NCBI GenBank assembly: GCA_964431655.1
Contig: CAYSKJ010000001.1
Span: forward strand, 13,984 to 77,983
Source: an uncultured bacterium
GTDB lineage: Bacteria; CAYMEV01
Direction of reading: 5' to 3'
DNA: 64,000 nucleotides
Below, piece after piece: positions 4,564 to 59,644 of this stretch. A model generated the notes under the pieces. The model did no database searches. It saw only the letters and a program-made list of their open reading frames with translations, and was not told the origin of the DNA. Made by a program: the position numbers and the translations under genes. Position 1 is the stretch's first letter, and every line of letters starts with the position of its first letter.

Positions 4564-4693
4564 TGTAAATCACCCCTTGTTTCAATGTATATTTGTATTA
4601 TGAGCCTCTAAAATTAGATGTATATTATAAGCATTAGGCTTCTTGTCAAGGATTTAATTTTATATGATTTTTTTTTTGCCATTTTGATACTAT

Positions 4694-5818: not shown

Positions 5819-6307
5819 ATGGCAAACAGCGATTTCTTAAAGCTTTTGGGGCTTATAATAGATAAGCTTTCAGAAGAGAATGATATTGATATTGATTTAA
5901 ATGAAGAATTATTTAAATATCTGGAATCCAACGGTTATGAAAATGCGGACATAGACAAGGCATTCAAGCTTGTAAAGAGACTGATGAATATTGGAAGGGA
6001 GGAGAAGGAAAAATTCTTCATCTCTGAAGACCAGGGTTTTGGAATAAGGATCTATACTCCTGAGGAAACCTTCCTTTACAATCATGGCGTACTTAAAAGA
6101 CTGTTCTATTTAAGGGATATCTATTTTATAGAGGACGAGGTTATTGAAGAGATAATAGATATTCTTCTGGGTCTCAGCGTCGATGATGAGATAATAAGCG
6201 AGGATTTTATAGATTCACTCCTAAATACCATATTCCTGGATAATAACTCCTTTGACAGAATTGCCGGCATTTCATCCAGCAGGAAAAGACCGGATACTGT
6301 TCATTAA
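5819..6307 (+). CDS. smg: Smg protein (DUF494)
   Basis: GIRIYTPEE matches the conserved MRIYTPEE core of E. coli Smg; 162 aa; located between dprA and topA. Confidence 0.8.
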   Translation: MANSDFLKLLGLIIDKLSEENDIDIDLNEELFKYLESNGYENADIDKAFKLVKRLMNIGREEKEKFFISEDQGFGIRIYTPEETFLYNHGVLKRLFYLRDIYFIEDEVIEEIIDILLGLSVDDEIISEDFIDSLLNTIFLDNNSFDRIAGISSSRKRPDTVH

Positions 6308-6318
6308 GAAAGCTTTAT

Positions 6319-8709
6319 ATGTCAAAATTAGTTATTGTTGAATCCCCCAAAAAAGCCAAAACCATATCAGGGAAGCTGGATGACAGCTTTAAGGTTGTAT
6401 CAACCAAAGGGCATATAAAGGATCTTCCCAAAAAACGCATCGGAATTGATGTTGAACACAATTTTGAATGTGAATGGGTTACGGTTCCGGGCAAGGAAAA
6501 ACTCATAAAAGAGATAATCCAGCTGGCAGAAAAGTCAGACCAGATACTGCTCGCTTCTGACCCTGACAGGGAAGGAGAGGCGATAGCCTATCATATCCAT
6601 GAACTCCTTAAAGAAAAAAATGCGAATATCAAGAGAATAGTATTCAATGAAATAACACAAAACGCCATAATCAACGCAATAAAATCGCCAAGGGACATTG
6701 ATTGGCACCTCTTTGAATCTCAAAAAGCCAGGAGGATACTGGACAGGCTTGTGGGCTTTCTGCTGAGCCCCCTCCTTATATACTTCCTTAAGAGGAACCT
6801 GAGCGCGGGAAGGGTCCAGTCCATCGCCCTTAAGCTTATTGTTGATCAGGAGAAAGCTATTCTGGCATTCATCCCCGAAGAATACTGGAGAGTTTATGGT
6901 ATTTTCACCCATGATAATCATGATATCGAGCTTGAACTGAAAAAGATTGACGGTAAAAAGCCTGATATTACCAATGGGGATTCTGCAGGCAAGATAGAAA
7001 TAGAGCTGAAAAAATCAAAATACATGGTTGCTGATGTATTGAATGATCATGTAAATAAGACGCCCCCTGATCCCTTTAAAACCAGCACTCTTCAGCAGGA
7101 AGCCAATATAAGGCTTGGTTTCAGCGGTAAAAAGACCATGATGATAGCCCAGGGACTTTATGAGGGCAAGAATATAGGAAAAGAGGAAGCAGGGCTTATA
7201 ACATATATGAGAACTGACTCAGTCAGGGTGTCCGAAGAGGCAAAGACAGCTACCCGGGCCTTTATCCTCAATGAGCTGGGTCTTGATATTGCTTCCCGGG
7301 ACAGAGCTGCCGGCAGGGCCAAAGCAGGAGATATAAAGATACAGGATGCCCACGAGGCTATAAGGCCTGCAGATCCTGCCCTGACCCCCCAGAGCATTGC
7401 AAAATACCTCGGACGAGATGAATTTAAGCTTTATGACCTTATATGGAGAAGATATATCGCGTCCTTCCTGAAAAATGCTGTCTATAAAAGGCTTTCTGTT
7501 CATATAAAAGGGGACGACCGGTTCCTCTTCGAAGCTGATTTCCTTAAGCTGGATCAGGAGGGTTTCCTTAAAATCTACAAGCCAGTCAGCATGGTCAGGA
7601 CAGTGGAATCCATGCCTGAGATTAAAAAAGGGGACAGGGTAAGTCTGAAAGATATAAGACCTGAACAGCACTTTACAGAACCCCCCAAAAGATTCTCCGA
7701 AGCGACACTTATCAAAGCACTGGAGAAGCAGGGAATAGGAAGACCCTCAACTTATGCCACCATACTGGATACACTTAAAAAGAGGGATTATATAAGACTT
7801 GAAAAAAAGACCATATATCCGCTCCCCATAGGCGTTTTTGTTACAGGCATTCTTGATTGCTTTTTCAAAAGCATTATTAATGTGCATTTTACTGCAGAGA
7901 TGGAGGAAAAGCTGGACGCTGTGGAACAGGGCAGAGATGACTGGGTTGAGATGATCAGGAATTATTACAGACTGCTGCATAAGAGTGTCAATACAGCAAA
8001 AAAGGAGATGTCAAAGGGACTTCGCACAGAGGTTGAGTGCCCGGTATGCGGTTCAGGAATGACTGTGAGGTTCAGCAGCAAGGGTGAATATCTTGCCTGC
8101 AGCAATTATCCTGCCTGTACTGCCAAAAGAAAACTGGGTTTTGATGATAAGTTCAATCCTGCGATAGAGGATGAAAAGGAGCATAACCATAAATGCCCCT
8201 CCTGCGGTAAAAAGCTTTTGCTTAAAAAAGGCAGGTATGGTGAATTCTATGGCTGTGAGGGATATCCCGAATGCAAATATACTGAACCCCTGGAAAAAGA
8301 GCCGAAACCGGGCTTGACACTGGATATGCTTCCTGACAGCCGAAAGCTGTGCAGTCTCTGTAATTCAGAGCTGAAGATCGCAGGAGGGCCTTATTCCAAT
8401 TATATGCTCTGTCAGAACCCTGAATGCAGGGCCAAGTCCCCGGTCAGGACCGGTATACCCTGCCCTGATGAAAAATGCGGGGGGGAGCTTGTTGAAAGGC
8501 ACAAGCAGAACAGGCCCTATTATGCATGTTCAAACTATCCTAAATGCCGGATCACTGTGCCCTTCCGGCCTGTTGCCAGAAAATGCCCGGAATGCGGGTA
8601 TAAGGTAATGTATCTGACGGAGTCCAGGACAAGGACTTCGGTTATCTGCGCCAACAGGGAGTGTAAATACAGGGAAATTACAAATAAAAACGGTGATTCT
8701 AGTAAATAA
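6319..8709 (+). CDS. topA: DNA topoisomerase I with C-terminal zinc-ribbon repeats
   Basis: TOPRIM N-terminus (LVIVESPKKAKTI); catalytic region (GLITYMRTDSVRVSEEA); several C-terminal CxxC...CxxC zinc ribbons (CPVCGSGM, CPSCGKKL, CPECGYKV). Confidence 0.95.
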   Translation: MSKLVIVESPKKAKTISGKLDDSFKVVSTKGHIKDLPKKRIGIDVEHNFECEWVTVPGKEKLIKEIIQLAEKSDQILLASDPDREGEAIAYHIHELLKEKNANIKRIVFNEITQNAIINAIKSPRDIDWHLFESQKARRILDRLVGFLLSPLLIYFLKRNLSAGRVQSIALKLIVDQEKAILAFIPEEYWRVYGIFTHDNHDIELELKKIDGKKPDITNGDSAGKIEIELKKSKYMVADVLNDHVNKTPPDPFKTSTLQQEANIRLGFSGKKTMMIAQGLYEGKNIGKEEAGLITYMRTDSVRVSEEAKTATRAFILNELGLDIASRDRAAGRAKAGDIKIQDAHEAIRPADPALTPQSIAKYLGRDEFKLYDLIWRRYIASFLKNAVYKRLSVHIKGDDRFLFEADFLKLDQEGFLKIYKPVSMVRTVESMPEIKKGDRVSLKDIRPEQHFTEPPKRFSEATLIKALEKQGIGRPSTYATILDTLKKRDYIRLEKKTIYPLPIGVFVTGILDCFFKSIINVHFTAEMEEKLDAVEQGRDDWVEMIRNYYRLLHKSVNTAKKEMSKGLRTEVECPVCGSGMTVRFSSKGEYLACSNYPACTAKRKLGFDDKFNPAIEDEKEHNHKCPSCGKKLLLKKGRYGEFYGCEGYPECKYTEPLEKEPKPGLTLDMLPDSRKLCSLCNSELKIAGGPYSNYMLCQNPECRAKSPVRTGIPCPDEKCGGELVERHKQNRPYYACSNYPKCRITVPFRPVARKCPECGYKVMYLTESRTRTSVICANRECKYREITNKNGDSSK

Positions 8710-10195
8710 TGTCAAAGTTACCCTGATGCAGGTTTGGGTCAAGGCGTATTGACAGATTGGGATGATTGCTCCCGAAAATATCATTCAGTATCAGATCCCT
8801 GTTCTTATAGAAATCCTGGGCTATATCCGGATGTATCCTAAGGGTAAATTCCTGGTTTTTTATCTTTCTGAGGTTCATGGAGATTTCTTTGTGGATTTCG
8901 GATAGAACCGTCATACTGTTCTTTATCGTTCCCTTCCCCTGGCAGTAGGGGCAGGTTCTGGTCATCAGCTTTTCCAGACTGATTTTAACCCTCTTACGGG
9001 TCATTTCTATAAGCCCCAGCTTACTAATCTGAAGTATGGTAGTCTTGGCCCTGTCATTCTTGAGTTCATTTTCAAGGGTTGAGAAAATGAGCTCCCTGTT
9101 TTCCACCTCTTCCATATCTATAAAATCAATAATTATAATACCCCCCAGGTTTCTAAGCCTTACCTGCCTGACTATTTCCCTGCATGCCTCTATATTGGTC
9201 CTTACTATGGTTTCCTCCAGTGATTTACTGCCGAGGTATTTTCCTGTATTAACATCAATGGAAACCAGTGCCTCTGTCTGGTCAATAACTATATACCCTC
9301 CTGATTTCAGCCATACCTTCCTTTTTAGTGCCTTTACCACTTCGGTTTCTATATTAAACTTGTCAAAGATAGGGGTGCTTGATGAGTAAAGCTTGACCCT
9401 GTCTGTAAGGTGAGGGAAAAATTTGTTAACGAAATCGAGAAGTTCTGTATAGTCGTTCTGGTTGTCAAGTATGAAGGAGGATATGTCCGAAGTGAAGACA
9501 TCCCTTGCCAGCCTCTGGATAATCCCCAGGTCTTTATGAAGCAGGCTGGGGGCTGAAACCTTGTCATACCTTTCTTTTACTTCAGTCCAAAGCTTCTGAA
9601 GAATTATCATATCCCCCTTCAAATCTCCCTCTTCATGGCCTTCGCATGCTGTCCGGAGGATATATCCGCCTTTGCTGTCATGTATCCTGTCCATAATATC
9701 ACGAAGGCGCTTGCGCTCCTGTTCCGAAGATATCCGTCTGGATATCCCGATATGCTGTATAGTAGGCATATAAACCACATATCTGCCCGGAAAGGACACA
9801 TGGGAAGTCACTCTCGGTCCCTTGGTCCCAATGGCTTCTTTGAGTACGTGGACAAGGATCTCCTGCCCCTCGATAAGGAGGTCATCAATATTGCTGTTCG
9901 GTTTCCTGTCGTCATTAGCCTCTTCAATGTCCTGTTCTTCTTCTTCCCCTGAATCAAGGGTTTCCGGAAAATAATGTACATCATCCACATAAAGGAAGGC
10001 GTCTTTGCCTATGCCTATGTCTACAAAGGCAGCTTCCATGCCGGGAAGCACCCGGGTGACCTTACCTTTGTATATATTGCCGGCAAGACGTGTCTGGCTT
10101 TTCCTTTCAATGTAGAGCTCGCACAGCTGACCGTCTTCCAGAAGGGCAACCCTGGTCTCAAAGGGATTTGTTGATGCAATAAGTTCTTTATACAT
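8699..10195 (-). CDS. rng: Ribonuclease G/E family endoribonuclease
   Basis: N-terminal S1 domain (ETRVALLEDGQLCELYIER...GNIYKGKVTRVLPGMEAAFVDIG) and RNase E/G catalytic core; 498 aa fits RNase G; its 3-prime end overlaps topA by 11 nt (convergent). Confidence 0.85.
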   Translation of the reverse strand: MYKELIASTNPFETRVALLEDGQLCELYIERKSQTRLAGNIYKGKVTRVLPGMEAAFVDIGIGKDAFLYVDDVHYFPETLDSGEEEEQDIEEANDDRKPNSNIDDLLIEGQEILVHVLKEAIGTKGPRVTSHVSFPGRYVVYMPTIQHIGISRRISSEQERKRLRDIMDRIHDSKGGYILRTACEGHEEGDLKGDMIILQKLWTEVKERYDKVSAPSLLHKDLGIIQRLARDVFTSDISSFILDNQNDYTELLDFVNKFFPHLTDRVKLYSSSTPIFDKFNIETEVVKALKRKVWLKSGGYIVIDQTEALVSIDVNTGKYLGSKSLEETIVRTNIEACREIVRQVRLRNLGGIIIIDFIDMEEVENRELIFSTLENELKNDRAKTTILQISKLGLIEMTRKRVKISLEKLMTRTCPYCQGKGTIKNSMTVLSEIHKEISMNLRKIKNQEFTLRIHPDIAQDFYKNRDLILNDIFGSNHPNLSIRLDPNLHQGNFDIIY

Positions 10196-15939: not shown

Positions 15940-16980
15940 ATGCCTGGATATAAGAAATATTGTGTGGGAGTCTTTCATTTTGCCAGCCCTTTCGGCGATG
16001 AGCTTGTAAAGCGTCTTAATGCGACTGAACCTTTCCTTATTGACAGCATTGAATACAAGATAACAGCTGATGATGTAAAGATACATGAATTCGGGCTTGA
16101 ATGGGGTTCCTCCCACCAGCTTATAATAGACAGGGGCTCCCATGTCTACCAGCAGGCGAGGAATGTATTCAAAATGCTTTCCTTCAGGGGAGTCCATATA
16201 ATAAATAATCCCTATTCCTTTGAATTCTTCATGAACAAGGATGTAGGCTACTATTATGTCAATATGCTCGGTGTTCCGGTACCCCCTACCTACAGCCTTC
16301 CCCCTCATGACAATTTCGGCTTTACTCCGGAGGAACTCCGCAATAACCTTTATTTCGACTGGGAAAAGATGATAGAAGAGGTTGGTTTTCCCATGTTTAT
16401 CAAGCCTGCCCAGGGAAGGGGAGGGCTGAACACCTATGAAGTCAGAAATTACCAGGAGCTTTTAGAATACTATAACCGCTCCGGTGACTCGGTAATGAGC
16501 CTTCAGAAAAAGATAGACAGCAACAGGGGCTATATTGTCAGGACTCTGTGCATAGGCAGGAAGATACTCCCTGTAAAGTATATATTCAAAAATACTGACG
16601 GTCCTGAGTATATTTATGACGAATCCTTCCTGAGCCCTGAAGAAGGCAGGAAGGTAACAGAGTATGCCAGGATCATCAATTTTGTTTTCGGATACAAGAT
16701 GAATTCTGTAGAATTTATAATCAAAGACGGCATACCGTGGGCAATTGACTTCAACAATCCGGTTCCTGACGGCAGGAAGGAAGCCCTGGGAGAAATCTAT
16801 TTCAATGATTACCAGGAGGCTCTGGTCAATCTCGTGATTGAAACTGCAAAATCAGGTAAAATGTCGGAATTTATACCTCCTATGAATAAGATAGCAGAGC
16901 TGGCAAGGCTTGATATCCCGCCTTCAGAAAGGTGCAGGAGAATTCTTAAGCTTGCCGAAGATATGTACTATAATAGTTAG
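15940..16980 (+). CDS. ATP-grasp domain protein (RimK/glutathione synthetase-like ligase)
   Basis: FPMFIKPAQGRGGLNTYEV and surrounding pattern typical of the ATP-grasp central/C-terminal domain. Confidence 0.6.
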   Translation: MPGYKKYCVGVFHFASPFGDELVKRLNATEPFLIDSIEYKITADDVKIHEFGLEWGSSHQLIIDRGSHVYQQARNVFKMLSFRGVHIINNPYSFEFFMNKDVGYYYVNMLGVPVPPTYSLPPHDNFGFTPEELRNNLYFDWEKMIEEVGFPMFIKPAQGRGGLNTYEVRNYQELLEYYNRSGDSVMSLQKKIDSNRGYIVRTLCIGRKILPVKYIFKNTDGPEYIYDESFLSPEEGRKVTEYARIINFVFGYKMNSVEFIIKDGIPWAIDFNNPVPDGRKEALGEIYFNDYQEALVNLVIETAKSGKMSEFIPPMNKIAELARLDIPPSERCRRILKLAEDMYYNS

Positions 16981-19977: not shown

Positions 19978-20059
19978 AAAACAATTTAAATCATTGATAT
20001 TTTCATTTATTATAATATAATCAGTCAGCAATATTTATACAAGCTTTTATTTTATAATT

Positions 20060-23000
20060 ATGGATAAAACTAATCTTTTAAAGTATTTTACTGTCAGCAA
20101 AAAGGCAACAGGGCTCGAGTACAAAACCCATCATGTATTTGACAATTTTGCCAAGAGGGATAAAAAACTTACGATTATTTCCCCGGATAATTATAATGAG
20201 TTCAGCATGAACCATTTTGCCAGCCTTTTTAATATATTTTCCTCGGAGGACAGCCATTTCCTTGAGTATTTACTTGAATGGGGAATCCTTGAGGATCAGA
20301 GCCTATATATCCTCAGGGATGCAAGGGATATAAGCATGATACCCGATGAACTCTTTTTGGTCAGGCAGATACCGCTTATTATCCTTGATATACTCATAGG
20401 CCTTTATGCTGTCCACAGAAATAACTTTTATTATGGCGGTGTAAAGAAGGAGGACCTTCTTTATAAGTACAGCAGGAGGCATAACATTGACGGTTTCAGC
20501 TATTACCTCTCCGGCGCCAAGATACTTAAAGCAGAGATTAACTCGGATATTCTCAATCTTCAGAGAGAGGATATAAAATCCCTGGTATTCAGCATAATCT
20601 CTTTTGTCAAAAACAAGGAAAGGGCAAAGCATGCCAGTGTCAACAGCCTTAATATGAACCAGCTGGTTGAGTATTTTATCAAGGACAAGATTATCAGGGA
20701 TATAATACTCGAGATATTCAGGGCTGAGGAAAGCATAACATATTATATAAGACTTCTGGTAAAGAATTTATTCTTTAATAATGAGCCACAGAGAGAATTC
20801 TACAACTCCATTATTCAAAGGCTTCCATGTCCGGACATCCCGCTGGAAAGGCACAGGATATCCCCGGAGGAGATCAAAAAACATAAAGCTGTCGTCATAA
20901 GCGGGGTAACCGGTATTGGAAAGTCTTTTTACATTAAGGATATTCTCAATATCTACAGGAAGATGAAATATGCCCCCTTTGTAATTAATGCTGCCCAGCA
21001 CAGCACAAGCAACTATGATTTTATACGCAATATAACTGACCTTATAAATGTAATGCTCAGGAAAAATGACTCCATGACCCTTGAAAAGCCGGCCAGCTCT
21101 TCAGAAGAGATGAGCTTTGAAGAGAGGATGTACCTTCTTTACAGGTTCGATCAGGCGGTCAGGCCTGTATTTGTGCTGGAGAATGCTGACCATGCAGATG
21201 AAAATACGCTTTTGCTCTTCAGAACCATAATAGAATCAGGTATCTCTGTAATTATAACCAACAATAATGATATAAGCAGTGACGGCTATATAAGGCTGGT
21301 CAAAGGGTTAAAAAAAGAAAGCATATACCCGGTAGTGCTTGATGAATGGAATGCAAATGAAATCTGTTCTTTTCTTGAAAGGGTTTTTTTCAATGAGAAC
21401 AAGAAAAAGATAAGAATTATGTCTGAGATGCTGTTCAAGAAAGGCCTGAAAACGCCGAAAAAGGTACGTGATATGGTAAACTATCTGCACAGCAGGGAAA
21501 AAGGGCTTTTTAACTATGATATAAATGATTTTAAGAACAGCATAGAGATAAATATAGACCTGTTCAGGGATTTTAAGGAAAAGCTTTTCATCAGCCTTAA
21601 TCCGGATGAGTCGCGTCTACTCAGGACCCTCTACCTTTTTCCCTGTGATGTGGAAGGCCTCTGCATGCTTCACTCAATGGAAGAAAAACGTGTAAAGGAT
21701 GTCCTGAACAGCCTGCTTTTAAAAAAGATGATTTTTCTGGATAAGAACAAGTATATGGTGAAAGACAGGGATATTTCCAGCGAGCTTTCTGCAAAGCTCA
21801 GCAGGCACGAACTTCATGATGAGTATCGCAGAATAGGCGCCTTTCTGCTAAAAGGCACCTCTGTGTCGCGAGCTATTCATGCACTCAATACTGCTGATTA
21901 CCTTATAAGGGGGGGGTATTGCCTCGAGGCGGCAAAGCTTATCCTGGACTATTCAGGGGAATCGGACAGGGTGCTGGAGAAGGGAAGGCATATCTGGTAC
22001 TATAACAAGGCCCTTGATATATTCAGGCAGAACAGGATGAAAAAAGAGCAGGTAATAATCCTGGAGAGGCTGTTTGAGATACATTACAGGCGAAGTGATT
22101 ATTCAAAGGCTGAAACAATACTCCATTTTCTGAGCAGGGCAGGGTATGATTCCTTCAAGCTCCACAAGAAATATGCACTTCTCCTCGAATCCACCGGGGA
22201 TTACAAACGAGCCATCGATTATTACAACAGGGCTTTCAGCTCCATAAAAAAAAGCACCGACAGTAACCTAAAGATTGATATATATATAGACATTGCCAGG
22301 CTTCTTCTTAAGACTTACAGGGAAGATTCAGCACGGGACATACTCCAGAAGGCGATTATTACCGAAAAGGAAAGCAATAATATGGACAGGCACAATATCA
22401 TACTGTCCCTGCTTGGGGAGCTTTATTTGCTTGAAGGAGACATTGATTCTTCGCTGAAGGCTTTCATAGAATCAGCTGAATTAAGCGAGAAAATCACGGA
22501 TTACTATACCCTGAGCCATACCCTGTCAGGTATCGGGCTTTTATATTTCAGGAAAAGGTCCTTTGACAAGGCATATGTATATTATAAAAAATCCCTGGAC
22601 CTTGCCATTAGAAATGACAATATTCAGGGTATTTCCCTGGGATACTCCAACCTGGGTAAGATAAACATGGTTTCAGGAAACTTTTCAGGGGCTTATGAGC
22701 AGTATACCAATGCCATGATCCTTCACCAGAAAACGGGTGACAGGAAGCAGTATGTCAATGACAGTTACAGGATATCATATCTGCTGACAGAGAAGGGAGA
22801 GCTGAGCCGGGCATATTATTCCGTCAAAGAGGGTCTGGATATAGCAGAAAAGGTAAAGGACCAGGAACTGAAGGCCATGATGCTCAGCAGTTTCGGCAGG
22901 ATATACCATTGTCTCGGAAGTTACGGTGAATCTGTCAACTATCATTACTATTCAAGAGTGATAGCAAAAAAACAGGGTTTTAAGGAATTCCTGGCCAGAA

Positions 23001-23671
23001 TAAACAATTCCCTGTCAAGCCTAATGTTCGATCTTGGCGATTACGTGAAATCCGGCCAGTTTGCTCAGAAATCGATCATCCTGGAGGAAGAACTCCGGAC
23101 AAATGAGTTTATTCCCCTGAATAATGCCCTCATAACTGCATCCCGGATATTTCTCGGGGATGCTGATGACCCTCTTGCCATGATCAGGGAATTGAAGAAT
23201 GAGGAGAATCTTCCGGATGATTTTTACCGGTTCAGGTATTATAAAACAGTATATGATGCGGGAAGATACCTCGGAGTGCGCGACCTGATGATATATTGTC
23301 TGCAGATGATAAAAGACCTTAACCTGGGTGCTTACAGCGTCTGGTATGACCTTGTGCAGGCCCTCTGCCATCAGTGGCTTTTTAATGATATGCCCGAGGA
23401 GGCAATCCTGAAACATTTAGAGACAGCTAATCAGATGGATTTCAGCGAGCTCCAGTGGGTGTGGGAATATGTCCTGGCCAATCATCTCTATTCAGCCGGT
23501 AAGCAGCAGGAATCCTATAATCACTACCTCGGGGCATATGAAAAGATAAAGGACAGGCTTTACAGCATATCAGAAATTTACAGGAATGCATATATTTCCA
23601 GCCCGTTCCGCCGTTTTGCCTATGAAAAGGGCGAGAAGGTTTTTCAGAAATTCAGCAGTTTATATTACTGA
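20060..23671 (+). CDS. STAND-type P-loop NTPase with C-terminal TPR array and uncharacterised ~270-aa N-terminal domain
   Basis: Walker A AVVISGVTGIGKSF near residue 280; Walker B-like VFVLENADHADE; ~600 aa of TPR-like repeats C-terminal; N-terminal domain contains AVHRNNFYYGGVKKEDLLY and IDGFSYY, faintly kinase catalytic-loop/DFG-like; no HTH found. Confidence 0.7.
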   Translation: MDKTNLLKYFTVSKKATGLEYKTHHVFDNFAKRDKKLTIISPDNYNEFSMNHFASLFNIFSSEDSHFLEYLLEWGILEDQSLYILRDARDISMIPDELFLVRQIPLIILDILIGLYAVHRNNFYYGGVKKEDLLYKYSRRHNIDGFSYYLSGAKILKAEINSDILNLQREDIKSLVFSIISFVKNKERAKHASVNSLNMNQLVEYFIKDKIIRDIILEIFRAEESITYYIRLLVKNLFFNNEPQREFYNSIIQRLPCPDIPLERHRISPEEIKKHKAVVISGVTGIGKSFYIKDILNIYRKMKYAPFVINAAQHSTSNYDFIRNITDLINVMLRKNDSMTLEKPASSSEEMSFEERMYLLYRFDQAVRPVFVLENADHADENTLLLFRTIIESGISVIITNNNDISSDGYIRLVKGLKKESIYPVVLDEWNANEICSFLERVFFNENKKKIRIMSEMLFKKGLKTPKKVRDMVNYLHSREKGLFNYDINDFKNSIEINIDLFRDFKEKLFISLNPDESRLLRTLYLFPCDVEGLCMLHSMEEKRVKDVLNSLLLKKMIFLDKNKYMVKDRDISSELSAKLSRHELHDEYRRIGAFLLKGTSVSRAIHALNTADYLIRGGYCLEAAKLILDYSGESDRVLEKGRHIWYYNKALDIFRQNRMKKEQVIILERLFEIHYRRSDYSKAETILHFLSRAGYDSFKLHKKYALLLESTGDYKRAIDYYNRAFSSIKKSTDSNLKIDIYIDIARLLLKTYREDSARDILQKAIITEKESNNMDRHNIILSLLGELYLLEGDIDSSLKAFIESAELSEKITDYYTLSHTLSGIGLLYFRKRSFDKAYVYYKKSLDLAIRNDNIQGISLGYSNLGKINMVSGNFSGAYEQYTNAMILHQKTGDRKQYVNDSYRISYLLTEKGELSRAYYSVKEGLDIAEKVKDQELKAMMLSSFGRIYHCLGSYGESVNYHYYSRVIAKKQGFKEFLARINNSLSSLMFDLGDYVKSGQFAQKSIILEEELRTNEFIPLNNALITASRIFLGDADDPLAMIRELKNEENLPDDFYRFRYYKTVYDAGRYLGVRDLMIYCLQMIKDLNLGAYSVWYDLVQALCHQWLFNDMPEEAILKHLETANQMDFSELQWVWEYVLANHLYSAGKQQESYNHYLGAYEKIKDRLYSISEIYRNAYISSPFRRFAYEKGEKVFQKFSSLYY

Positions 23672-24480: not shown

Positions 24481-25974
24481 TTATTTCTTAAAAATACCGA
24501 AGCCCTTTTTATCCTTTTCCGACATTTTGGATGTGAAATCCTCTATTGTATGCTTTAATTTAGAGATTTCCTGGTCCTTTTCCTTCTGCATCCTGACGGA
24601 TTTTTCATAAAGGGCTGAACTCTTCTGGTTTGCTTTCTGAAGTTCATTTCTTAGCTCAAGAAGCTCTCTTTCCAGTTCCTTTATTATACTGTCCTTTTCC
24701 TGGATTGCAGAGTCTTTGTCAGTCAGGTCCTTATTGTATTTATCCAGCTGTTCCTGGAAATCCTTCTCCATCTCCATAAGCTTCATGATTTTTGAAAAAT
24801 CTGCTTTGCTCAATTCCGGTTTACCCCCTTTGTGTTCATAGTCATCAGGTTCTTTGAATTTATCGGCAAACAGCTTTGTAAGGTTAAGCTCCAGCTCAGA
24901 AGCATTGGCACTGCACCTTAAAGCCTCTTCTTTCGTAATAACATTATTCAGAATCAAGGCCATGAGGGACTGGTTCATGGACTGCATCCTGGTGTGAACG
25001 ACACTTGATTCTATCTCGTCTATCAATTCACTGGTATTGCCTGTAAGTATCAGTTTTTTGGCATTAGGCGATGCTATGAGAATCTCCACACCCGCCACCA
25101 TTCCGTCAACATTCTTTTTTTTCACCAGCTGTTGCGAAAGAACAGCAAGGAGAACATGTGAAAGCTGAAGCTTTATCTGCTGCTGCTGAGATGAGGGGAA
25201 CATGTCTATAATCCTGTCTATGGTCTGGGATGCGTCATTGGTATGAAGGGTGGAAAGAACCAGATGTCCTGTTTCTGCAGCCGTGAGTACAGTCTCCATG
25301 GTTTCCTGGTCCCTCATTTCGCCGACCATTATTACATCAGGGTCCTGCCTTAATACATTTCTAAGGGCCTCGGCAAAGTTGGGAGTATCGAAACCTACCT
25401 CCCTCTGGCTTATACAGGCCAGATTATCACGGAACAGGAATTCTATCGGGTCTTCAATAGTAACGATATGTACATTTCTTGTATTGTTTATCTCCTTGAT
25501 CATTGCCGCCAGGGTTGTTGATTTACCGCTGCCGGTGGGACCTGTAACCAGTATAAGGCCCTGTTTCCTTGAGACAAGGTCCAGGAGCTGTTCGGGCAGG
25601 TCAAGATCCTTTATGGACAGGATTTCATGGGGTATATTCCTGAACACTATCCCGAAAGAGCTCCTCTGCTGGAATATATGGGTCCTGAACCTGGCCAGGC
25701 CGGGTACGGAATACCCGACATCAATTGCCTTTTTTTCCCTGAATTTTTCTCTGCTGTCCCTTGGAAGAATGCAAAGGGCAATGGATTTTATATCATCCGG
25801 CTTGAGTACTGGAAAATCCAGGGGTATGAGCCTGCCGTCCAGCCTGATCATCGGCGGCCTCATGACTTTCAGATGTAAATCCGATGCCTTCCGGCTGACA
25901 AGCTCCTTGAGAAAATTATTCAGCATGGAGGTACTGTAAGCCCTCTGATCCTGTATGGTCTTTTCAATTGTCAA
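24481..25974 (-). CDS. pilT: Type IV pilus retraction ATPase PilT family with ~140-aa C-terminal coiled-coil extension
   Basis: Walker A LILVTGPTGSGKSTT; Asp box and His box of PilT/PilU secretion ATPases; C-terminal Lys/Glu-rich coiled coil not present in canonical ~345-aa PilT. Confidence 0.85.
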   Translation of the reverse strand: MTIEKTIQDQRAYSTSMLNNFLKELVSRKASDLHLKVMRPPMIRLDGRLIPLDFPVLKPDDIKSIALCILPRDSREKFREKKAIDVGYSVPGLARFRTHIFQQRSSFGIVFRNIPHEILSIKDLDLPEQLLDLVSRKQGLILVTGPTGSGKSTTLAAMIKEINNTRNVHIVTIEDPIEFLFRDNLACISQREVGFDTPNFAEALRNVLRQDPDVIMVGEMRDQETMETVLTAAETGHLVLSTLHTNDASQTIDRIIDMFPSSQQQQIKLQLSHVLLAVLSQQLVKKKNVDGMVAGVEILIASPNAKKLILTGNTSELIDEIESSVVHTRMQSMNQSLMALILNNVITKEEALRCSANASELELNLTKLFADKFKEPDDYEHKGGKPELSKADFSKIMKLMEMEKDFQEQLDKYNKDLTDKDSAIQEKDSIIKELERELLELRNELQKANQKSSALYEKSVRMQKEKDQEISKLKHTIEDFTSKMSEKDKKGFGIFKK

Positions 25975-30791: not shown

Positions 30792-32141
30792 TTAAATATT
30801 CCTGTCCGGCCATTTCTGTTTTTTATAAGGTATATAAAGGACAAGCCCCTTTAGCATGGTTGTTATATGTATTGCTATCCATACACCGATTACCCTGTAG
30901 TCGAGCAGCACAGCCAGCAGATAGGCTATGGGGATTCTCAGGGCTGTTATGGGTGTATTAATAAGGAGTACAGGCAGTGTATTGCCGGAACCCTGGAAGG
31001 CTCCGGACAGGATTATCTCAAGGCTGTGGAAGAATAGAACCATGTACAGTATTCTGATATATACAGTGCAGTAGCTTATTACCAGCATATTATCCGTAAA
31101 GAGAGAAAATACCCAGGGGGCGAAAAGGAAAAGCAGTGTGCCAGTAGTATAAGCCCCTGCATTAGCAAGGATAACTGAATGCCTCACAGATTCCCTTGCT
31201 TTCCGGGGCTGGCCTGCACCGAGATTCTGCCCTACCATGGACATGGTCGCCTGGGAGAATCCGAAAAATATAAAGTAGGTCATGCTTTCAACCTTGTGCA
31301 CCAGGCCCATGGAAGCGATTGCTTCTGTTCCGAATCTCGAGAGTATGCTTGAAATAAAAATATATATGGATGAAAAGAGAAACCCGTTGATGGAGGGCGG
31401 AAAGCCTATCTTCAATATCTTTTTTATTATCTCAGAATAATAGCTTAAAGGCCGCCTTAAACCTGAGGCACGGTACCTGCTCAGAAAATTCAGATTCAAT
31501 ACCCGGTATGCCATCACGCATCCCGATATACGTGAAATTACTGTTGCCAGAGCAGCGCCCCGGATGCCCATTTCGGGGAAGAAAAACCACCCGAAGATCA
31601 GTATCGGGTCAAGGATTATATTTATTATCAGGCTTGTTATAAGTATCTTAAAAAATACAATATTATTGCCTATTGCATTGAATGTATTGCCGAGGACCTG
31701 ATAGAAGAACAGAAAAAAGGAGCTTATTATCATGATGCTTGTATAGGTAACCCCCTGCGAGCTGACAAGGGAGTCGGAGGTCATGAATCTGAATAACAGG
31801 GGTATTACCCAAAGCCCCGTTAATATGAAAAGTACGCTAAGTACAGCGCACAGTACCGCCGAGGTCCTGAATACATCAACAGAGCTTTCAAAGTTTTTCT
31901 CGCCTATTCTCCTGGCAATGATCGAGGTCTGGCCGGTGGCAATAATGCTCCCTATGCTCATTATACCCCATAGAATAAAGGATGAAACTGATATGGCAGC
32001 TATGCTGTGATGCCCTAACTTCCCTATCCAGAATATATCAATGAGCTCGAAGGCTGATTGAAACACCATCATCCCTATTGCCGGAAAGGCAAGGCGCAAA
32101 ATGTTCCTGTTCAATGAGCCTGTTGTCAGATCCCTGTACAT
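30792..32141 (-). CDS. MATE family multidrug/sodium efflux transporter
   Basis: 449 aa, 12 predicted TM helices, MATE N-terminus (NILRLAFPAIGMMVFQSAFELIDIFWIGKLG); 51 nt upstream of the rSAM-SPASM gene on the same strand. Confidence 0.9.
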   Translation of the reverse strand: MYRDLTTGSLNRNILRLAFPAIGMMVFQSAFELIDIFWIGKLGHHSIAAISVSSFILWGIMSIGSIIATGQTSIIARRIGEKNFESSVDVFRTSAVLCAVLSVLFILTGLWVIPLLFRFMTSDSLVSSQGVTYTSIMIISSFFLFFYQVLGNTFNAIGNNIVFFKILITSLIINIILDPILIFGWFFFPEMGIRGAALATVISRISGCVMAYRVLNLNFLSRYRASGLRRPLSYYSEIIKKILKIGFPPSINGFLFSSIYIFISSILSRFGTEAIASMGLVHKVESMTYFIFFGFSQATMSMVGQNLGAGQPRKARESVRHSVILANAGAYTTGTLLFLFAPWVFSLFTDNMLVISYCTVYIRILYMVLFFHSLEIILSGAFQGSGNTLPVLLINTPITALRIPIAYLLAVLLDYRVIGVWIAIHITTMLKGLVLYIPYKKQKWPDRNI

Positions 32142-32247
32142 GATGAATAATCTTATTAATGGAAAAAGCGGTTAATTGCAAATGAAAAATTTGCCGAAGT
32201 ATGAGCTGCATATTATGCCTCACAAAGCTGAATATCAAATTTAAATA

Positions 32248-32276
32248 TTGACATAAAAAAGATATACGGTTAACAT
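32248..32276 (+). promoter_or_regulatory. Candidate sigma-70 promoter for ileS (TTGACA-17-TAACAT)
   Basis: TTGACA at 32248-32253, 17-nt spacer, TAACAT at 32271-32276, about 38 nt upstream of the ileS ATG; identical copy at 56809-56837. Confidence 0.4.
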
Positions 32277-32313
32277 ACCCTGTCATTTTATCATTATTAG
32301 CTGGAGGCTCGAT

Positions 32314-35082
32314 ATGGACAGTCAAAAAATAAAGGAGACCCTTAATCTTCCAAGGACAGGATTTCCCATGAAGGCGAATCTGTCTGCCAACGAACCGAAA
32401 ATACTGGAATTCTGGGAGAAAGAGGGTATTTATCATGCGATAAGGGAAAATAAATCAGGCCTGCCAAAATTCATACTTCATGACGGCCCGCCTTATGCTA
32501 CAGGCCATATACATATCGGCACAGCCCTCAACAAGGTTTTAAAGGATTTTATTGTTAAATATAAAAATATTACAGGTTTTGACGCACCCTATGTTCCTGG
32601 CTGGGATTGCCACGGGCTGCCCATTGAGAATAAGGTTGAAAAAACCATGAAAGATAAAAAGGAATCCCTTTCAAAACTTGAGATTCGGAAAAGATGCTAT
32701 GATTATGCCGTATCCTATGTTGATATAATGCGTGAGGAATTCAAGAGGCTGGGAGTTCTGGGCCGGTGGGAAGAACCCTATCTGACCCTGAACCCTGTTT
32801 ATGAGGCGGTTATCCTCAGGGTTCTCGCATCAGCAGTCAGGCAGGGGTATGTCTACCGCCAGCTCAAACCCATACACTGGTGCATGGGGTGTACAACCGC
32901 CCTGGCAGAGGCGGAGCTTGAATATTCGGATGCAGAATCGGATTCCATATTCGTGAGGTTTGCTCTCAAGAGGGCAGGTATTGCAAGTCCCCTTAAGGAA
33001 TATGAAGGCAGAGAAAATGTCTTCTTTATGATCTGGACCACCACTCCCTGGACCATACCTGCAAATATGGCCCTGGCAGTCCATCCGGACCTGGATTACG
33101 GCATTTACAGCGTTGACGGTGAGTTGCTTATACTTGCCAGTGAGCTGAAGGATAGCCTTGAATCAAAACTGGGTATCGGCTCTTTTAAGCTGTTGAAACA
33201 GTTCAGGGGCAATATGCTGGAAGGGGATATCGCCCGGCATCCCCTTATAGACAGGGAGTCTGCAGTAGTTCTGGCAAACTATGTAACCCTTGAACAGGGT
33301 TCAGGTATTGTGCATACAGCACCGGGGCACGGCCAGGAAGATTATCAGACCGGACAGAAATACAATATAGAAACCTTCTGCCCGGTGGATGAAAAGGGGA
33401 GATTCACCAGCGGATTCGCACCCTTTGAGGGGGTCAATGTCTTTGAATCAAACCCCGGTATAGTACAGATGCTCAAAGACAGGGGCATGTTATTGAAAAG
33501 CGAGAGCTTTTCCCATTCCTATCCCCATTGCTGGAGATGCAAAAAACCTGTTATATTCAGGGCGACAGAGCAGTGGTTTATAAATATTGACCACAACGGC
33601 CTGAGAAAAAAAGCCCTGGACAGTATCCGGAGCGTTGACTGGATACCAGGCTGGGGTATGAACAGGATATATGCCATGATAGAGAACAGACCCGACTGGT
33701 GCATTTCAAGGCAGAGAAACTGGGGAGTTCCCATCGTTGCAGTAAAGTGCAGTGACTGCGGAGAGATAAGCATCGATGCTGACCTTATAGACAGGGTAGC
33801 GGATATTGTTGAAAAAGAAGGTATAGGTATCTATTTTGAAAAGAATATAAGGGAAATAATCCCCGGTTTGAAATGCCCGCGGTGCGAATCGCATAATATA
33901 ATACAGGAAGAGGACATACTGGATGTATGGTTTGAATCCGGGGTATCCCATAAGGCTGTTCTGACAACCAATGAGGAGCTGTCCTGGCCTTCGGACCTGT
34001 ATCTTGAAGGTAGCGACCAGCACAGGGGATGGTTCAATTCTTCCCTAATACTTTCACTGATATCGGAAAAGACCCCCCCTTACAGGCAGGTACTGACCCA
34101 TGGTTTTGTCGTTGATGAGCAGGGGAAAAAGATGTCCAAGTCTCTGGGTAATTTTATCAGCCATGAGGATATAATCGGAAAGTACGGCGGAGACATACTT
34201 AGGATGTGGGTTGCATCCGAGGATTACAGGGAGGATATAAGGGTATCCAGAAACATCATTGACAATCTTTCGGAAAGCTACAGGAAGATAAGAAACACCT
34301 TCCGCTTTGCACTTTCAAATCTCTATGATTTCAACCCTGATAAGGACATGGTAAGGCTTGAGAATATGACCGGCCTGGATAAATTCTATTTTGAAAAGTA
34401 TCTAGCTATTGCAGAAAGGATAAAATCTGCCTACGAGAAGTACAATTTCCATATTGTTGTCCAGAACCTTGTCAACTTTGCCAGCATTGACCTGTCAAGC
34501 CAGTACCATGACATTATCAAGGACAGGCTCTATGTAAACAGGGCTGACAGCAGGGAGAGGAGGAGCACCCAGAGCTGCATATACAGGATAATAAAGGGGC
34601 TTCTGACCCTTTCTTCCCCGATTCTGTCCTTTACAGCCGACGAAGCATGGCAGTATCTTCCTAAATCATCCAAAGATCCTGTCAGCGTTCATCTCTCCAC
34701 TCTCGGGGAATATGGTTTTCATTTTGAAAAAACAGGTATTTTTGAGGACATTTTGAGCATAAGGTCTGCAGTATCCAAAAAGCTGGAAATCCTGAGGAAA
34801 GAGAATGTAATCGGCTTGTCCCTGGATTCTCATGTGAGCATCAAAATACCTGCAAGGCTCTTTGAACAGCTCAATTGCATGAAAGATGAGCTGAAAGAGA
34901 TATTGATGATATCGGAAATAGAGCTTGTTAAATCAGAGGAAAAAGAAAAGGATACTGTTGAGGAATCAATAGAAATATCTGCAAAAAAGCATGACGGGGA
35001 GAAATGCCCCCGATGCTGGCGGTATTTTTACAAAAGCCAGGAACTGTGTCCGAGATGTTCCTCCATAATAAAAGATATTTAG
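32314..35082 (+). CDS. ileS: Isoleucyl-tRNA synthetase
   Basis: PYATGHIHIGT (HIGH), KMSKS, GWDCHGLPIE editing-domain junction and C-terminal CPRCW...CPRC zinc finger; strongly matches bacterial IleRS; followed by lspA as in the classical ileS-lspA linkage. Confidence 0.95.
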   Translation: MDSQKIKETLNLPRTGFPMKANLSANEPKILEFWEKEGIYHAIRENKSGLPKFILHDGPPYATGHIHIGTALNKVLKDFIVKYKNITGFDAPYVPGWDCHGLPIENKVEKTMKDKKESLSKLEIRKRCYDYAVSYVDIMREEFKRLGVLGRWEEPYLTLNPVYEAVILRVLASAVRQGYVYRQLKPIHWCMGCTTALAEAELEYSDAESDSIFVRFALKRAGIASPLKEYEGRENVFFMIWTTTPWTIPANMALAVHPDLDYGIYSVDGELLILASELKDSLESKLGIGSFKLLKQFRGNMLEGDIARHPLIDRESAVVLANYVTLEQGSGIVHTAPGHGQEDYQTGQKYNIETFCPVDEKGRFTSGFAPFEGVNVFESNPGIVQMLKDRGMLLKSESFSHSYPHCWRCKKPVIFRATEQWFINIDHNGLRKKALDSIRSVDWIPGWGMNRIYAMIENRPDWCISRQRNWGVPIVAVKCSDCGEISIDADLIDRVADIVEKEGIGIYFEKNIREIIPGLKCPRCESHNIIQEEDILDVWFESGVSHKAVLTTNEELSWPSDLYLEGSDQHRGWFNSSLILSLISEKTPPYRQVLTHGFVVDEQGKKMSKSLGNFISHEDIIGKYGGDILRMWVASEDYREDIRVSRNIIDNLSESYRKIRNTFRFALSNLYDFNPDKDMVRLENMTGLDKFYFEKYLAIAERIKSAYEKYNFHIVVQNLVNFASIDLSSQYHDIIKDRLYVNRADSRERRSTQSCIYRIIKGLLTLSSPILSFTADEAWQYLPKSSKDPVSVHLSTLGEYGFHFEKTGIFEDILSIRSAVSKKLEILRKENVIGLSLDSHVSIKIPARLFEQLNCMKDELKEILMISEIELVKSEEKEKDTVEESIEISAKKHDGEKCPRCWRYFYKSQELCPRCSSIIKDI

Positions 35083-35083
35083 C

Positions 35084-35614
35084 ATGATGTTTAAGAAAAA
35101 CCCTGCAGGGGCATTTGTGTTATTCCTGCTGTCAGTTGCTGTTATTGACCAGCTGAGCAAGTTTTATATTCTCAGGCTAAATGCTCTGGACCCTGGGGCT
35201 CTGCTTTCGGGTATCCCTATAATAATCGGTTTCCTCGAGATAACCCTGACCTATAATCAGGGCATCATTTTTGGTTTTCTTGGGAATGCCAATAATCTGG
35301 TGATACTAACACTTAATATATTCATACTTGCAGGGGTATTTATCTTTGTTGCCATGGATATAAAAAGGGGCAGGACGGGGCTTTTATATCTCGGGGGCTT
35401 CGGTCTGATTCTGGGAGGAGCCCTGGGGAATATCCTTGACAGGATAATTGTAGGAAAGGTCATAGATTTCATTAAGGTATATATAACATCTGATTTTATA
35501 TGGCCAATATTCAATATTGCCGATTCAGCAATAACCGTCGGAATAATCCTGGTATTTGCTGATATGATTTTTTTTGACAGGGAGAGTAAGATAAATGCAC
35601 CCGATACTGCTTGA
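35084..35614 (+). CDS. lspA: Lipoprotein signal peptidase (signal peptidase II)
   Basis: Conserved NQGIIFGFL and FNIADSAITVG motifs with catalytic Asp residues; 4 TM helices; 176 aa. Confidence 0.9.
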   Translation: MMFKKNPAGAFVLFLLSVAVIDQLSKFYILRLNALDPGALLSGIPIIIGFLEITLTYNQGIIFGFLGNANNLVILTLNIFILAGVFIFVAMDIKRGRTGLLYLGGFGLILGGALGNILDRIIVGKVIDFIKVYITSDFIWPIFNIADSAITVGIILVFADMIFFDRESKINAPDTA

Positions 35615-36371
35615 TCTTGGATTTATAAGGCTCCATACCTATGGTTTCTGTATTTCACTGGGTGTAGTGGCTGCTTTATTGCTGGCCATAAAGCTGGGCA
35701 GGTCCTTTGATATAAGCAGGGATTTCATACTGGATCTTACGATAAAACTGCTTATATCGGGGATCATTGGCTCGAAAATCCTCTATATCATGGTATATTA
35801 CCAGGAATTTATCCAGGAACCTGTCAGGATAATCAGGGATTTCAGGTCTGGATTTGTTTTTTTCGGGGGACTTATCCTTGCATTTATAATGGGCTATCTG
35901 CATGTCAGAAAGAGTAAATACAGGATGGGCAATCTTTTTGATGTTTTCGCCCCTGCATTGGCCCTTGCCCATTCCTTTGGAAGGCTCGGGTGCACCATGG
36001 CTGGATGCTGTTATGGAAAGGCGGTGCCCCATGATGCCTTTTATACCCTGCGTTTCTGCCATCCTGAAACCATTGCCTGTCCTGTATGCAGGCCTCTTAT
36101 TGCGACACAGCCCATAAGTTCGATATTTCTCTTTCTGCTGTCGATGCTTATGCTATCTCTTTTTTTTAAATGGAAAAAGCGTTATCCTGGAAGCCTATTA
36201 TTTATCTATGCATCAACTTATTCCCTTTTCAGGTTTATTATTGAGTTTTTCCGCGGTGATGACCGCGGGTTCCTTTTCGGGCTTTCAACATCCCAGGTCA
36301 TCAGCATGGCTGTATTTCCGGCAGCCATTTACCTTCTTTTCAAATATAATATACGCAGAAAGAAACCATGA
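35595..36371 (+). CDS. lgt: Prolipoprotein diacylglyceryl transferase
   Basis: Lgt N-terminus (PILLDLGFIRLHTYGFCISLGVVAA); Lgt signature region GRLGCTMAGCCYGK; overlaps lspA by 20 nt. Confidence 0.9.
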   Translation: MHPILLDLGFIRLHTYGFCISLGVVAALLLAIKLGRSFDISRDFILDLTIKLLISGIIGSKILYIMVYYQEFIQEPVRIIRDFRSGFVFFGGLILAFIMGYLHVRKSKYRMGNLFDVFAPALALAHSFGRLGCTMAGCCYGKAVPHDAFYTLRFCHPETIACPVCRPLIATQPISSIFLFLLSMLMLSLFFKWKKRYPGSLLFIYASTYSLFRFIIEFFRGDDRGFLFGLSTSQVISMAVFPAAIYLLFKYNIRRKKP

Positions 36372-37357
36372 GTGCGGATATCCCGACAAAAGGGTCTGTT
36401 ATGTGCCGAAAACCCGGCAGTGAATTATCAGGTCTCAGGCTTGATATTGCTCTTTCAGAAATGGATCCGGGTATTTCAAGGAATTTTGCACAATATCTTA
36501 TAATATCCGGATATGTTTTTGTCAATGGCAGGCAGGAAATTCGCAAATCCCAGAGACTGAATGCTGAAGATATCGTAGAGGTCTTGGAATATGAAAAAAA
36601 ATCTGATGCCGTTCCCCTGCCAAAAAAAGCAGAGCTGAATATACTGTATCAGGATGAATTCCTTCTGGTCATTGACAAGCCTTCAGGTCTAACAGTCCAT
36701 CCAGGATCCGGCAATACCCAGGACACCCTTGTTAATGCCCTGCTCTATTACCGGGAAATGTTCAGCATACGCCTTTCAGATATGCAGGGCATATCCCGGT
36801 GCGGTATAGTGCACAGGCTTGACAAGGATACATCCGGTGCCATGCTTATTGCCAAGGAAAATGAGGCGCACCTTAAGCTTCAAGGACTGTTCAAGGAGCG
36901 CAGGGTCAAGAAGGAATACCTTGCGGTGGTATGGGGCGAGATAATGCCGAACGAACTTATAATTGACAGCCCTATTGGAAGGCACCCCAAAAACAGGCTT
37001 AAATTTTCATCAAAATCATCCTTTCCGAAGGATGCATTTACAAAAGTGAGGGTATTCAGCCGTTTCAACGGATTCAGCCTCATTAAGGCCTATCCCCTTA
37101 CCGGCCGGACCCACCAGATCCGTGTTCACATGAAAGAGGCCGGGTTTCCCATTGTCGGAGATAAAGTATATTCTGCCAAAAGGACACAGAGTATGGAGAA
37201 ATATTTTGCCAGAAACAGTACGGTTTTAAGACTGATGCTTCACAGTCAAAGGATTTTATTTCCCCATCCCTTTAAAAGTGATATATTAATTATCAGTTCA
37301 CCGGTTCCAGCTGATTACAGGGAGTGTTTAAGGGTTTTAAGGCATTATAATGGTTAG
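36368..37357 (+). CDS. RluA-family 23S rRNA pseudouridine synthase (RluD-like, N-terminal S4 domain)
   Basis: Catalytic motif GIVHRLDKDTSGAMLIAK; S4-like N-terminus; 4-nt overlap with lgt stop. Confidence 0.85.
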   Translation: MSADIPTKGSVMCRKPGSELSGLRLDIALSEMDPGISRNFAQYLIISGYVFVNGRQEIRKSQRLNAEDIVEVLEYEKKSDAVPLPKKAELNILYQDEFLLVIDKPSGLTVHPGSGNTQDTLVNALLYYREMFSIRLSDMQGISRCGIVHRLDKDTSGAMLIAKENEAHLKLQGLFKERRVKKEYLAVVWGEIMPNELIIDSPIGRHPKNRLKFSSKSSFPKDAFTKVRVFSRFNGFSLIKAYPLTGRTHQIRVHMKEAGFPIVGDKVYSAKRTQSMEKYFARNSTVLRLMLHSQRILFPHPFKSDILIISSPVPADYRECLRVLRHYNG

Positions 37358-38603: not shown

Positions 38604-38700
38604 CCCCTTTTCCCGCAGGGAACACCTCTGATAAATATTGACAACAGGTCCAATCAAAATAGGATTAGACTGTAGCTTCAATATAAAAGGGTGTCATCCT

Positions 38701-56702: not shown

Positions 56703-56874
56703 GATGAATAATCTTATTAATGGAAAAAGCGGTTAATTGCAAATGAAAAATTTGCCGAAGTATGAGCTGCATATTATGCCTCACAAAGCTGAATATCAAA
56801 TTTAAATATTGACATAAAAAAGATATACGGTTAACATACCCTGTCATTTTATCATTATTAGCTGGAGGCTCGAT

Positions 56875-59643: not shown

Positions 59644-59644
59644 C

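Follow-up and report, generated by a model that had tools for sequence, protein, structure and literature searches.

Background

Fusions of a kinase to a signal transduction ATPase with numerous domains (STAND) form a recognised STAND subfamily (PknK; PMC4381067), and an activation mechanism has been described for STAND proteins that carry tetratricopeptide repeats (TPR; PMC6468293). Both kinase-STAND fusions and STANDs with a TPR sensor have precedents, but a bacterial member is nowadays taken for phage defence almost by default. Here we describe gene X (20060..23671, + strand), which lies in a stretch of 64,000 nt from an uncultured bacterium (GenBank assembly GCA_964431655.1, contig CAYSKJ010000001.1, positions 13,984 to 77,983 of the forward strand; this whole stretch is referred to as the window). 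We conclude that X is probably a cytoplasmic STAND-class switch composed of a pseudokinase head, an NB-ARC-like nucleotide-binding oligomerisation domain (NOD), a TPR array and a helical tail, and that it most likely serves as an endogenous regulator and not as a phage sensor.

X has the domain order of the PknK-type STAND Ser/Thr kinases (e.g. M. tuberculosis PknK; P0018), that is a kinase-fold head, a P-loop NOD and a helical-repeat sensor, and like them it is solitary and cytoplasmic. With the MalT/LuxR-type STAND regulators it has in common the NOD and the helical-repeat sensor, for which an autoinhibition/inducer model exists (PMC4381067, PMC6468293). The tripartite logic of Avs1-21 and of bacterial proteins related to the nucleotide-binding leucine-rich repeat receptors (NLR) is also found in X; here an N-terminal output domain and a NOD are followed by a C-terminal TPR-like sensor, which binds one target protein and thereby leads to oligomerisation (PMC13581612).

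Gene X and its family

Gene X is a real gene. It is an ATG-started open reading frame (ORF) of 1203 aa with its stop codon at 23669-23671, and it has full-length relatives of 1196-1236 aa at 65%, 58%, 52% and ~26% identity, hence it is more than a chance ORF. The exact protein is also encoded on the ENA metagenome contig ERZ27252298:k141_128107. Three of the orthologues are 1203 aa long and the fourth 1196 aa, and X aligns with the orthologue at locus L002 without indels.

An exhaustive phmmer search with aa 1-640 against 1.84 billion cluster representatives returned only P0001 (62% identity) and P0002 (25%), while a search with a full-length profile added P0005 (58%) and P0006 (52%). The family so far comprises six distinct sequences among ~15 billion proteins, namely four orthologues including X (group A) and two sequences of a second type (group B). 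Identity is 69% within group B and ~26% between B and A, and from these sequences we take the two groups to be an old paralogue pair. Both types were seen in one genome, a metagenome-assembled genome (MAG) deposited as uncultured Candidatus Sumerlaeota (L002 and L003; alignment-based contig scan). They probably co-occur in a second one as well, as one Joint Genome Institute (JGI) metagenome contains a fragment that matches X at 100% identity together with a sequence of the distant type (L004, L006). No relatives of gene X were found in the viral contigs or in the plasmids searched. By these searches the family is restricted to a small number of uncultured bacteria of the Sumerlaeota type.

A STAND protein with an NB-ARC-like NOD and a TPR array

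As judged from its sequence, X belongs to the STAND proteins and has a NOD that is NB-ARC-like, predicted to consist of a P-loop nucleotide-binding domain (NBD), a helical domain and a winged-helix domain (aa 263-600; 20846..21859, +) and recognised from weak Pfam matches together with hhalign. In the Pfam search of the full protein a P-loop NTPase signal was detected at aa 272-398, with AAA_22 and AAA_16 at E ~1e-5. The generic AAA_22 was the only NOD model to pass (28.3 bits against a cut-off of 27, on aa 271-667), and weak matches were found for nSTAND3, nSTAND6, NACHT, ATPase_2 and an APAF-1-like winged-helix domain (WHD). Aligned by hhalign, the six-sequence profile of aa 255-650 matched P0016 with a probability of 89% and P=2.3e-6 over 329 columns, extending through the winged helix. 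P0016 itself passes the Pfam NB-ARC model (29.1 against 23.5 bits) and has TPRs. Against PDB sequences the NOD profile gave only matches at the P-loop level, at E values of at least 0.027.

The motifs of X and P0016 are in register (ISGVTGIGKS with VNGMGGVGKT, PVFVLEN with MLLFIDN, VIITNNN with VVITSRN, and the winged helix). Walker A is GVTGIGKS (aa 282-289; 20903..20926, +), of which G282, G285, G287 and K288 are invariant in the six sequences. The Walker B position is occupied by VFVLEN (aa 370-375; 21167..21184, +), aligned to LLFIDN of P0016, and the sensor-1 strand VIITNNN (aa 397-403; 21248..21268, +) is aligned to VVITSRN. The winged-helix domain LNPDESRLLRTLYLFPC ... KYMVKD (aa 513-569; 21596..21766, +) pairs with LTEYEINVLEAFSIFPY ... 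SYMMHP of P0016 and has a weak APAF-1-like_WHD match (E=0.12). In X the His position of the MHD type is taken by Lys.

All four members of group A have L-E-N at Walker B, which departs from the canonical hhhhD[DE], while group B has the canonical L-M-I-D-D. The conservation of L-E-N suggests slow or absent ATP hydrolysis, and with it a long-lived ATP state, in group A. At sensor 1 the residue is Asn in group A and Arg in group B. We had considered this Asn as a sign of degeneration and dropped the idea, since Asn is a normal sensor-1 residue of AAA+ proteins; only the EN of Walker B is treated as atypical.

The TPR sensor array follows at aa 640-1013 (21977..23098, +), where TPR_12 scored 81.9 bits against a cut-off of 30.1 (E=3.7e-23). 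Further matches were to TPR_1 (43 bits), TPR_2 and, weakly, TPR_MalT, and the closest solved relatives are the TPR structures of LGN/Pins (E ~1e-12). The remainder, aa 1014-1203 (23099..23668, +), is an unassigned helical C-terminal region with the family-specific motifs D[FY][SG]EL[QIL]W.WE (aa 1127-1136) and PFR (aa 1182-1184). No Pfam match at E<=10 was found for aa 981-1203, and neither there nor in the full-protein scan was there any helix-turn-helix (HTH), including the LuxR/GerE type. When the last 190 aa were compared, as possible extra TPRs, with the family's own TPR region, the match was not significant (hhalign P=0.06). The layout of a P-loop NTPase followed by a C-terminal TPR array, as in STAND proteins and lacking an HTH, had been proposed in the original prediction from the letters of the sequence, and it is borne out by Pfam, by the hhalign match to P0016 and by the TPR_12 score.

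A kinase-like head that lacks the catalytic residues

The N-terminal head (aa 1-262; 20060..20845, +) is the best-conserved domain of the family, with 70-75% identity in orthologue pairs and 27-29% between paralogues, as compared to 17% for the NBD. As the most conserved part of the protein it would be functional and not decaying. We consider it likely, from profile comparisons and modelling taken together, that the head has a kinase-like fold. A three-sequence profile searched against PDB sequences had a protein kinase (PK6) as top match at E=0.016, over the segment LDILIGLYAI ... KkEDLLY. With the six-sequence profile the E values were 0.1-1.6, and 14 of the 15 matches listed were kinases, all at the region of helix alphaE and the catalytic loop; a second local match in this search paired QKEDIKSL with QKVDIWSLG, which is kinase subdomain IX.

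Run in local mode, hhalign aligned the head to four reference kinases collinearly (3-244 against 4-262), and the alignment scored 23.9. After shuffling of columns the score was 13.8 ± 2.2 (0/60 reached 23.9), after shuffling of blocks 14.4 ± 2.8 (1/60), and with the reversed profile 12.7. It should be noted that the four reference sequences may contain small errors. A structural model of the head was built with AlphaFold2 (AF2) from a three-sequence alignment; the single-sequence AF2 model of aa 1-640 had a predicted local distance difference test score (pLDDT) of 37. Top structural matches of the head model were the pseudokinases JAK2 JH2, PAN3, BIR2, Spir KIND and RKS1, and kinases dominate the match lists of the head in three libraries, one of them viral.

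The N-terminal 262 residues might also be an unrelated, lineage-specific alpha/beta domain, whose likeness to kinases would have come about by chance from its composition (Ile/Leu/Tyr/Asn-rich, in an AT-rich genome) and from a low-confidence model. We find this unlikely. The three different methods agree on fold and register, the motifs occur in the correct order (a hinge-like LEY, alphaE with the catalytic loop, and the D-I-K-S-L of subdomain IX), the alignment is supported by the shuffle controls, and the lead of kinases extends to all three libraries, including the viral one. These observations have to be set against the lack of a Pfam match for aa 1-262, the exhaustive phmmer search of aa 1-640 that returned family members only, and a top PDB match that came from the AT-rich Plasmodium and whose E value rose to 0.11 with more sequences. 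The pLDDT of 50 and the Foldseek E values, which never reached 1e-3 or below, are likewise on the side of a chance likeness.

The original prediction had tentatively seen a pseudokinase-like domain in this part of the protein, based on two strings, HRNNFYYGGVKKEDLLY and IDGFSYY, both of which are present (aa 119-135 and 143-149). The former (20414..20464, +) corresponds to the end of helix alphaE and a remnant of the catalytic loop, and its residues H119, R120, N121, Y124, Y125 and G126 are invariant. H119 was aligned to the conserved His before the catalytic loop (yfHsnn) in every alignment, and the position of the kinase HRD is Y125-G126-G127; hence the catalytic Asp is replaced by Gly in group A, and by Lys in the paralogues. 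K129, kept in group A, matches the catalytic-loop Lys, and D132 matches the catalytic-loop Asn. The proposed register in which HRN equals HRD was therefore off by six residues, but the reading as a kinase-like domain with dead catalytic residues stands.

The equivalent of subdomain IX (D-x-W-S-x-G) is QREDIKSLV (aa 168-176; 20561..20587, +), with D171 and S174 invariant. At the beta3 Lys position, in an N-lobe where the register is of low confidence, we find T38, invariant in five of the six sequences and replaced by Ser in P0005. No Gly-rich loop (GxGxxG) was found in the alignments of the head, and no conserved DFG in the six-sequence alignment. The element in IDGFSYY that had been called DFG-like has its Asp, D144, 17 residues past the HRD position, and this residue is conserved in the four orthologues only and not in the paralogues. 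As the beta3 Lys, the HRD Asp and a conserved DFG are all missing, the head is best described as a putative pseudokinase. A hydrophobic peak at aa 98-116 (Kyte-Doolittle 1.97) was also considered as a membrane helix and dropped, as D110, which is invariant, lies within it and its counterpart in kinases is alphaE, a buried helix.

A vertically inherited core gene

X is stably inherited vertically at one chromosomal site in four related uncultured bacteria. The window and L002 are collinear over >20 kb, with X 65% identical there and the genes around it 50-88%, and at L007 and L008 the orthologue is again convergent with yraN, rplS and the gene of a PilT-like ATPase. Directly upstream of X lies queC in 3/4 genomes; L007 has four genes in between, of which ligA is the last. 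Its stop codon is 8 nt before the X orthologue on the same strand, hence the two are probably co-transcribed in that genome. The identity of X across orthologues (52-65%) is within the range of its neighbours (49-88%), and in the most distant genome the values are 78% for rplS, 55% for queC and 52% for X, so X evolves like its neighbours. The GC content at third codon positions (GC3) of X is 0.509, native by comparison with 0.42-0.53 for the genes around it in the window.

Neither tRNAs nor, in the gene scan of the window, mobile elements were found near X. A PADLOC search matched X to no defence-specific model, only to the generic TPR model (E=7.7e-12), and its ten neighbours gave no defence system, only generic matches to QueC and, weakly, to P-loop, radical SAM and FAD models. 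The QueC match was considered as a link to Dpd-type defence and dropped, as queC has no further dpd or que gene beside it and encodes an ordinary QueC. No domain of X could be recognised as a cell-killing effector such as a nuclease, SIR2, TIR or protease; its parts outside NOD and TPRs are the dead kinase-like head and the helical tail. Nor was a variable, island-like or mobile context seen, the locus being the same in the four genomes and flanked by housekeeping genes.

From these data we judge it quite unlikely that X is an antiviral receptor of the Avs or NLR type, in which the TPRs would bind a phage protein, the NOD would oligomerise and the kinase-like head would act as effector or recruiter. 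The effector-NOD-TPR layout is indeed that of Avs proteins (PMC13581612), bacterial conflict systems are known in which a Ser/Thr kinase is the effector domain (PMC8195603), the family is exceptionally narrow, with its six sequences in ~15 billion, and the gene is solitary with a promoter candidate of its own. A head lacking the kinase catalytic residues leaves the protein no catalytic effector, however, and the PADLOC results, the fixed locus between housekeeping flanks in four genomes, the rate of divergence shared with the neighbours, the native GC3, the lack of mobile elements and tRNAs nearby and the lack of phage or plasmid relatives all speak against such a receptor. The original prediction of an inserted defence or regulatory singleton, which was itself ready to yield to conserved orthologues in syntenic position, is not supported, in view of the four syntenic orthologues along with the native GC3, the housekeeping flanks, the absence of any PADLOC system and the absence of viral or plasmid relatives.

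Proposed mechanism and its weighing

By analogy with MalT, the TPR-STAND PH0952, Apaf-1 and Avs (PMC4381067, PMC6468293, PMC13581612), and with NLRs, the TPR array and the tail of X would hold the NOD closed. The TPR region may bind some protein or small molecule of the cell as its ligand, and the binding would lift the autoinhibition of the NOD, whereupon ATP would replace ADP and X would oligomerise. The pseudokinase heads clustered in this way could serve a partner as scaffold, docking site or allosteric platform, and the head would not be expected to transfer phosphate itself.

Further, we speculate that A and B may pair in the manner of plant sensor and helper NLRs and form a hetero-oligomeric pseudokinase platform over a core process, or else that the conserved head performs some non-kinase chemistry switched by oligomerisation. 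A hetero-oligomer of the two is allowed because the paralogues co-occur, but we regard this pair of ideas as rather improbable. If either were true, it would represent a housekeeping, non-immune use of pseudokinase-STANDs in bacteria. That the head is an atypical active enzyme, with relocated catalytic residues (as in WNK and CASK) or another chemistry (AMPylation of the SelO type, glutamylation of the SidJ type) turned on by STAND oligomerisation, seems very unlikely to us with the Gly-rich loop, the beta3 Lys, the HRD Asp and a conserved DFG Asp all absent and the N-lobe poorly modelled, even though the head is the most conserved domain, occupies the effector position of STAND proteins and has invariant polar residues beyond the needs of the fold (D28 N29, R33, K35, R86 D87, R89, D110, H119 R120 N121 and D171).

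Several points weigh against our preferred reading of X as a pseudokinase-headed endogenous switch. For the head, aa 1-280 have no Pfam match at E<=10, Pkinase and PK_Tyr_Ser-Thr included; taken singly, each argument for a kinase fold is weak (E=0.016-0.1, hhalign P ~0.02), and in the head model, with its pLDDT of 50, the N-lobe is below 50 and the TM-scores are ~0.3. For the NOD, the curated STAND models are below cut-off on X (AAA_16 26.5/32.6, nSTAND3 20.5/27.2 and NACHT 14.4/26.7 bits) and NB-ARC gave no match in Pfam. As every Pfam STAND model falls short, we assign X to no single one of the curated STAND families. The link to NB-ARC is transitive, through one protein (P0016), and the non-canonical Walker B leaves nucleotide-dependent switching not assured. 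Synteny in a few related genomes is compatible with a defence role of a long-resident gene. Finally, the mechanism given above is drawn from analogy only, its ligand, partner and output being hypothetical.

Neighbouring genes and other features of the loci

The neighbours named in the original prediction were confirmed: queC lies upstream of X and is divergent (Pfam QueC 225 bits), and yraN (UPF0102) and rplS lie downstream and are convergent, followed by the PilT-like ATPase gene. The 3' end of X overlaps yraN by 7 nt. Within the 82-nt intergenic region of queC and X we found a sigma-70-like promoter candidate, TTGATA-16-TATAAT (19994..20021, +), which has 11/12 consensus matches and ends ~38 nt before the ATG. 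The number of sigma-70-like sites in this region is not above that of shuffled sequences, and the promoter is therefore a candidate only. The ATPase next to rplS (24481-25974, -) is of the PilT/T2SSE type and 497 aa long, and is extended at its C-terminus by ~130 aa that are rich in Lys and Glu and resemble a coiled coil. Conservation of this protein is 75-88%, and its gene adjoins rplS-yraN-X in all four genomes. At L007, the interval from queC to X (4538-8747) encodes a 96-aa ORF, a MarR/HTH regulator, a cytosine/purine permease and the NAD-dependent DNA ligase LigA.

The remaining genes of the window are of the housekeeping kind and include topA, RNase E/G, a class I aminoacyl-tRNA synthetase, ftsY, lnt, a P-type ATPase and murB. 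A conserved protein of 346 aa (15940-16980, +), which matches neither Pfam nor PADLOC models, is 78% identical in L002. The FtsY-like GTPase (50080-52389, -), a receptor of the signal recognition particle (SRP) with its SRP54 domain at aa 563-763, has TPR repeats at aa ~267-408 in the N-terminal region, where an acidic A domain is usual.

Positions 31442-39439 recur unchanged (100% identity) at 56003-64000, as a direct duplication that measures at least 7,998 bp, has a spacing of 24,561 bp and runs off the end of the window. The left junction is inside a MatE-like gene (30792..32141, -), and the second copy begins in a truncated copy of this gene, after which the class I aminoacyl-tRNA synthetase (922 aa) is present again along with the four genes that follow it. 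The duplication is either a very recent segmental one or an artefact of the assembly. The last 5.5 kb of the window map past the end of a 71.6-kb ENA contig; a contig of 111 kb is also listed.

Paralogue B is syntenic in its two genomes, where it lies between a conserved 631-aa protein and a fusion of HEAT repeats with phosphoenolpyruvate carboxykinase (PEPCK). The former, of 625-631 aa (L003 7998-9893 and L006 3472-5349), is encoded directly upstream of paralogue B and co-directionally, and is 62% identical between the genomes. It had no Pfam or PDB-sequence match, and it is possible that it is an operon partner of the B-type pseudokinase-STAND. The latter (L003 13815-16100, also L006 9258-11534) is an ATP-dependent PEPCK with an N-terminal HEAT-repeat extension of ~200 aa, 761 aa in total, which is an unusual fusion.

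Comparison with known systems

The likeness to the PknK-type kinases extends collinearly from the kinase through the NOD, but the alignment is weak (hhalign of X aa 7-644 with residues 2-672 of P0018, P=0.013). P0018, a Pkinase-AAA_16-TPR protein, has HLDLKPSN and DFG intact, whereas the head of X is without the canonical catalytic residues. The NOD of X is also nearer to the NB-ARC type of P0016 (P=2.3e-6) than to the AAA_16 type of P0018 (P=0.013), and AAA_16 is below its cut-off on X. The bacterial NB-ARC/TPR STANDs (AP-ATPase clade, AfsR-like; P0016) provide the best-supported homology to the NOD, with Walker A, Walker B (IDN in P0016, LEN in X), sensor 1 and the winged helix in register, and in both a TPR_12-type array comes after it. 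P0016 differs in having an unassigned N-terminus where X has the kinase-like head, and at the MHD His, which is Lys in X.

Unlike the Avs proteins, X has no Avs or PADLOC defence match, no catalytic effector and no phage or plasmid relatives, and it occupies a core-genome position. Unlike the MalT/LuxR-type regulators, it has no C-terminal HTH but an extra domain at the N-terminus. The pseudokinases that act as scaffolds or sensors (JAK2 JH2, PAN3, BIR2, Spir KIND and RKS1) have a kinase fold without catalysis and work through protein-protein interaction, and they have no detectable sequence relationship to X. Of these, RKS1 works together with the plant NLR ZAR1. In that pair the pseudokinase belongs to the sensor side and is a protein of its own; in X it is fused at the N-terminal, that is the output, position.

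The restriction to a few uncultured genomes limits the immediate impact of the X family, which nevertheless could reveal bacterial STAND signalling by way of a pseudokinase scaffold, and which provides a concrete warning against labelling every solitary STAND a defence gene. Compared with the systems above, the parts of X are all familiar, and what is new is a pseudokinase-headed STAND that behaves like a core gene within one narrow lineage of uncultured bacteria.

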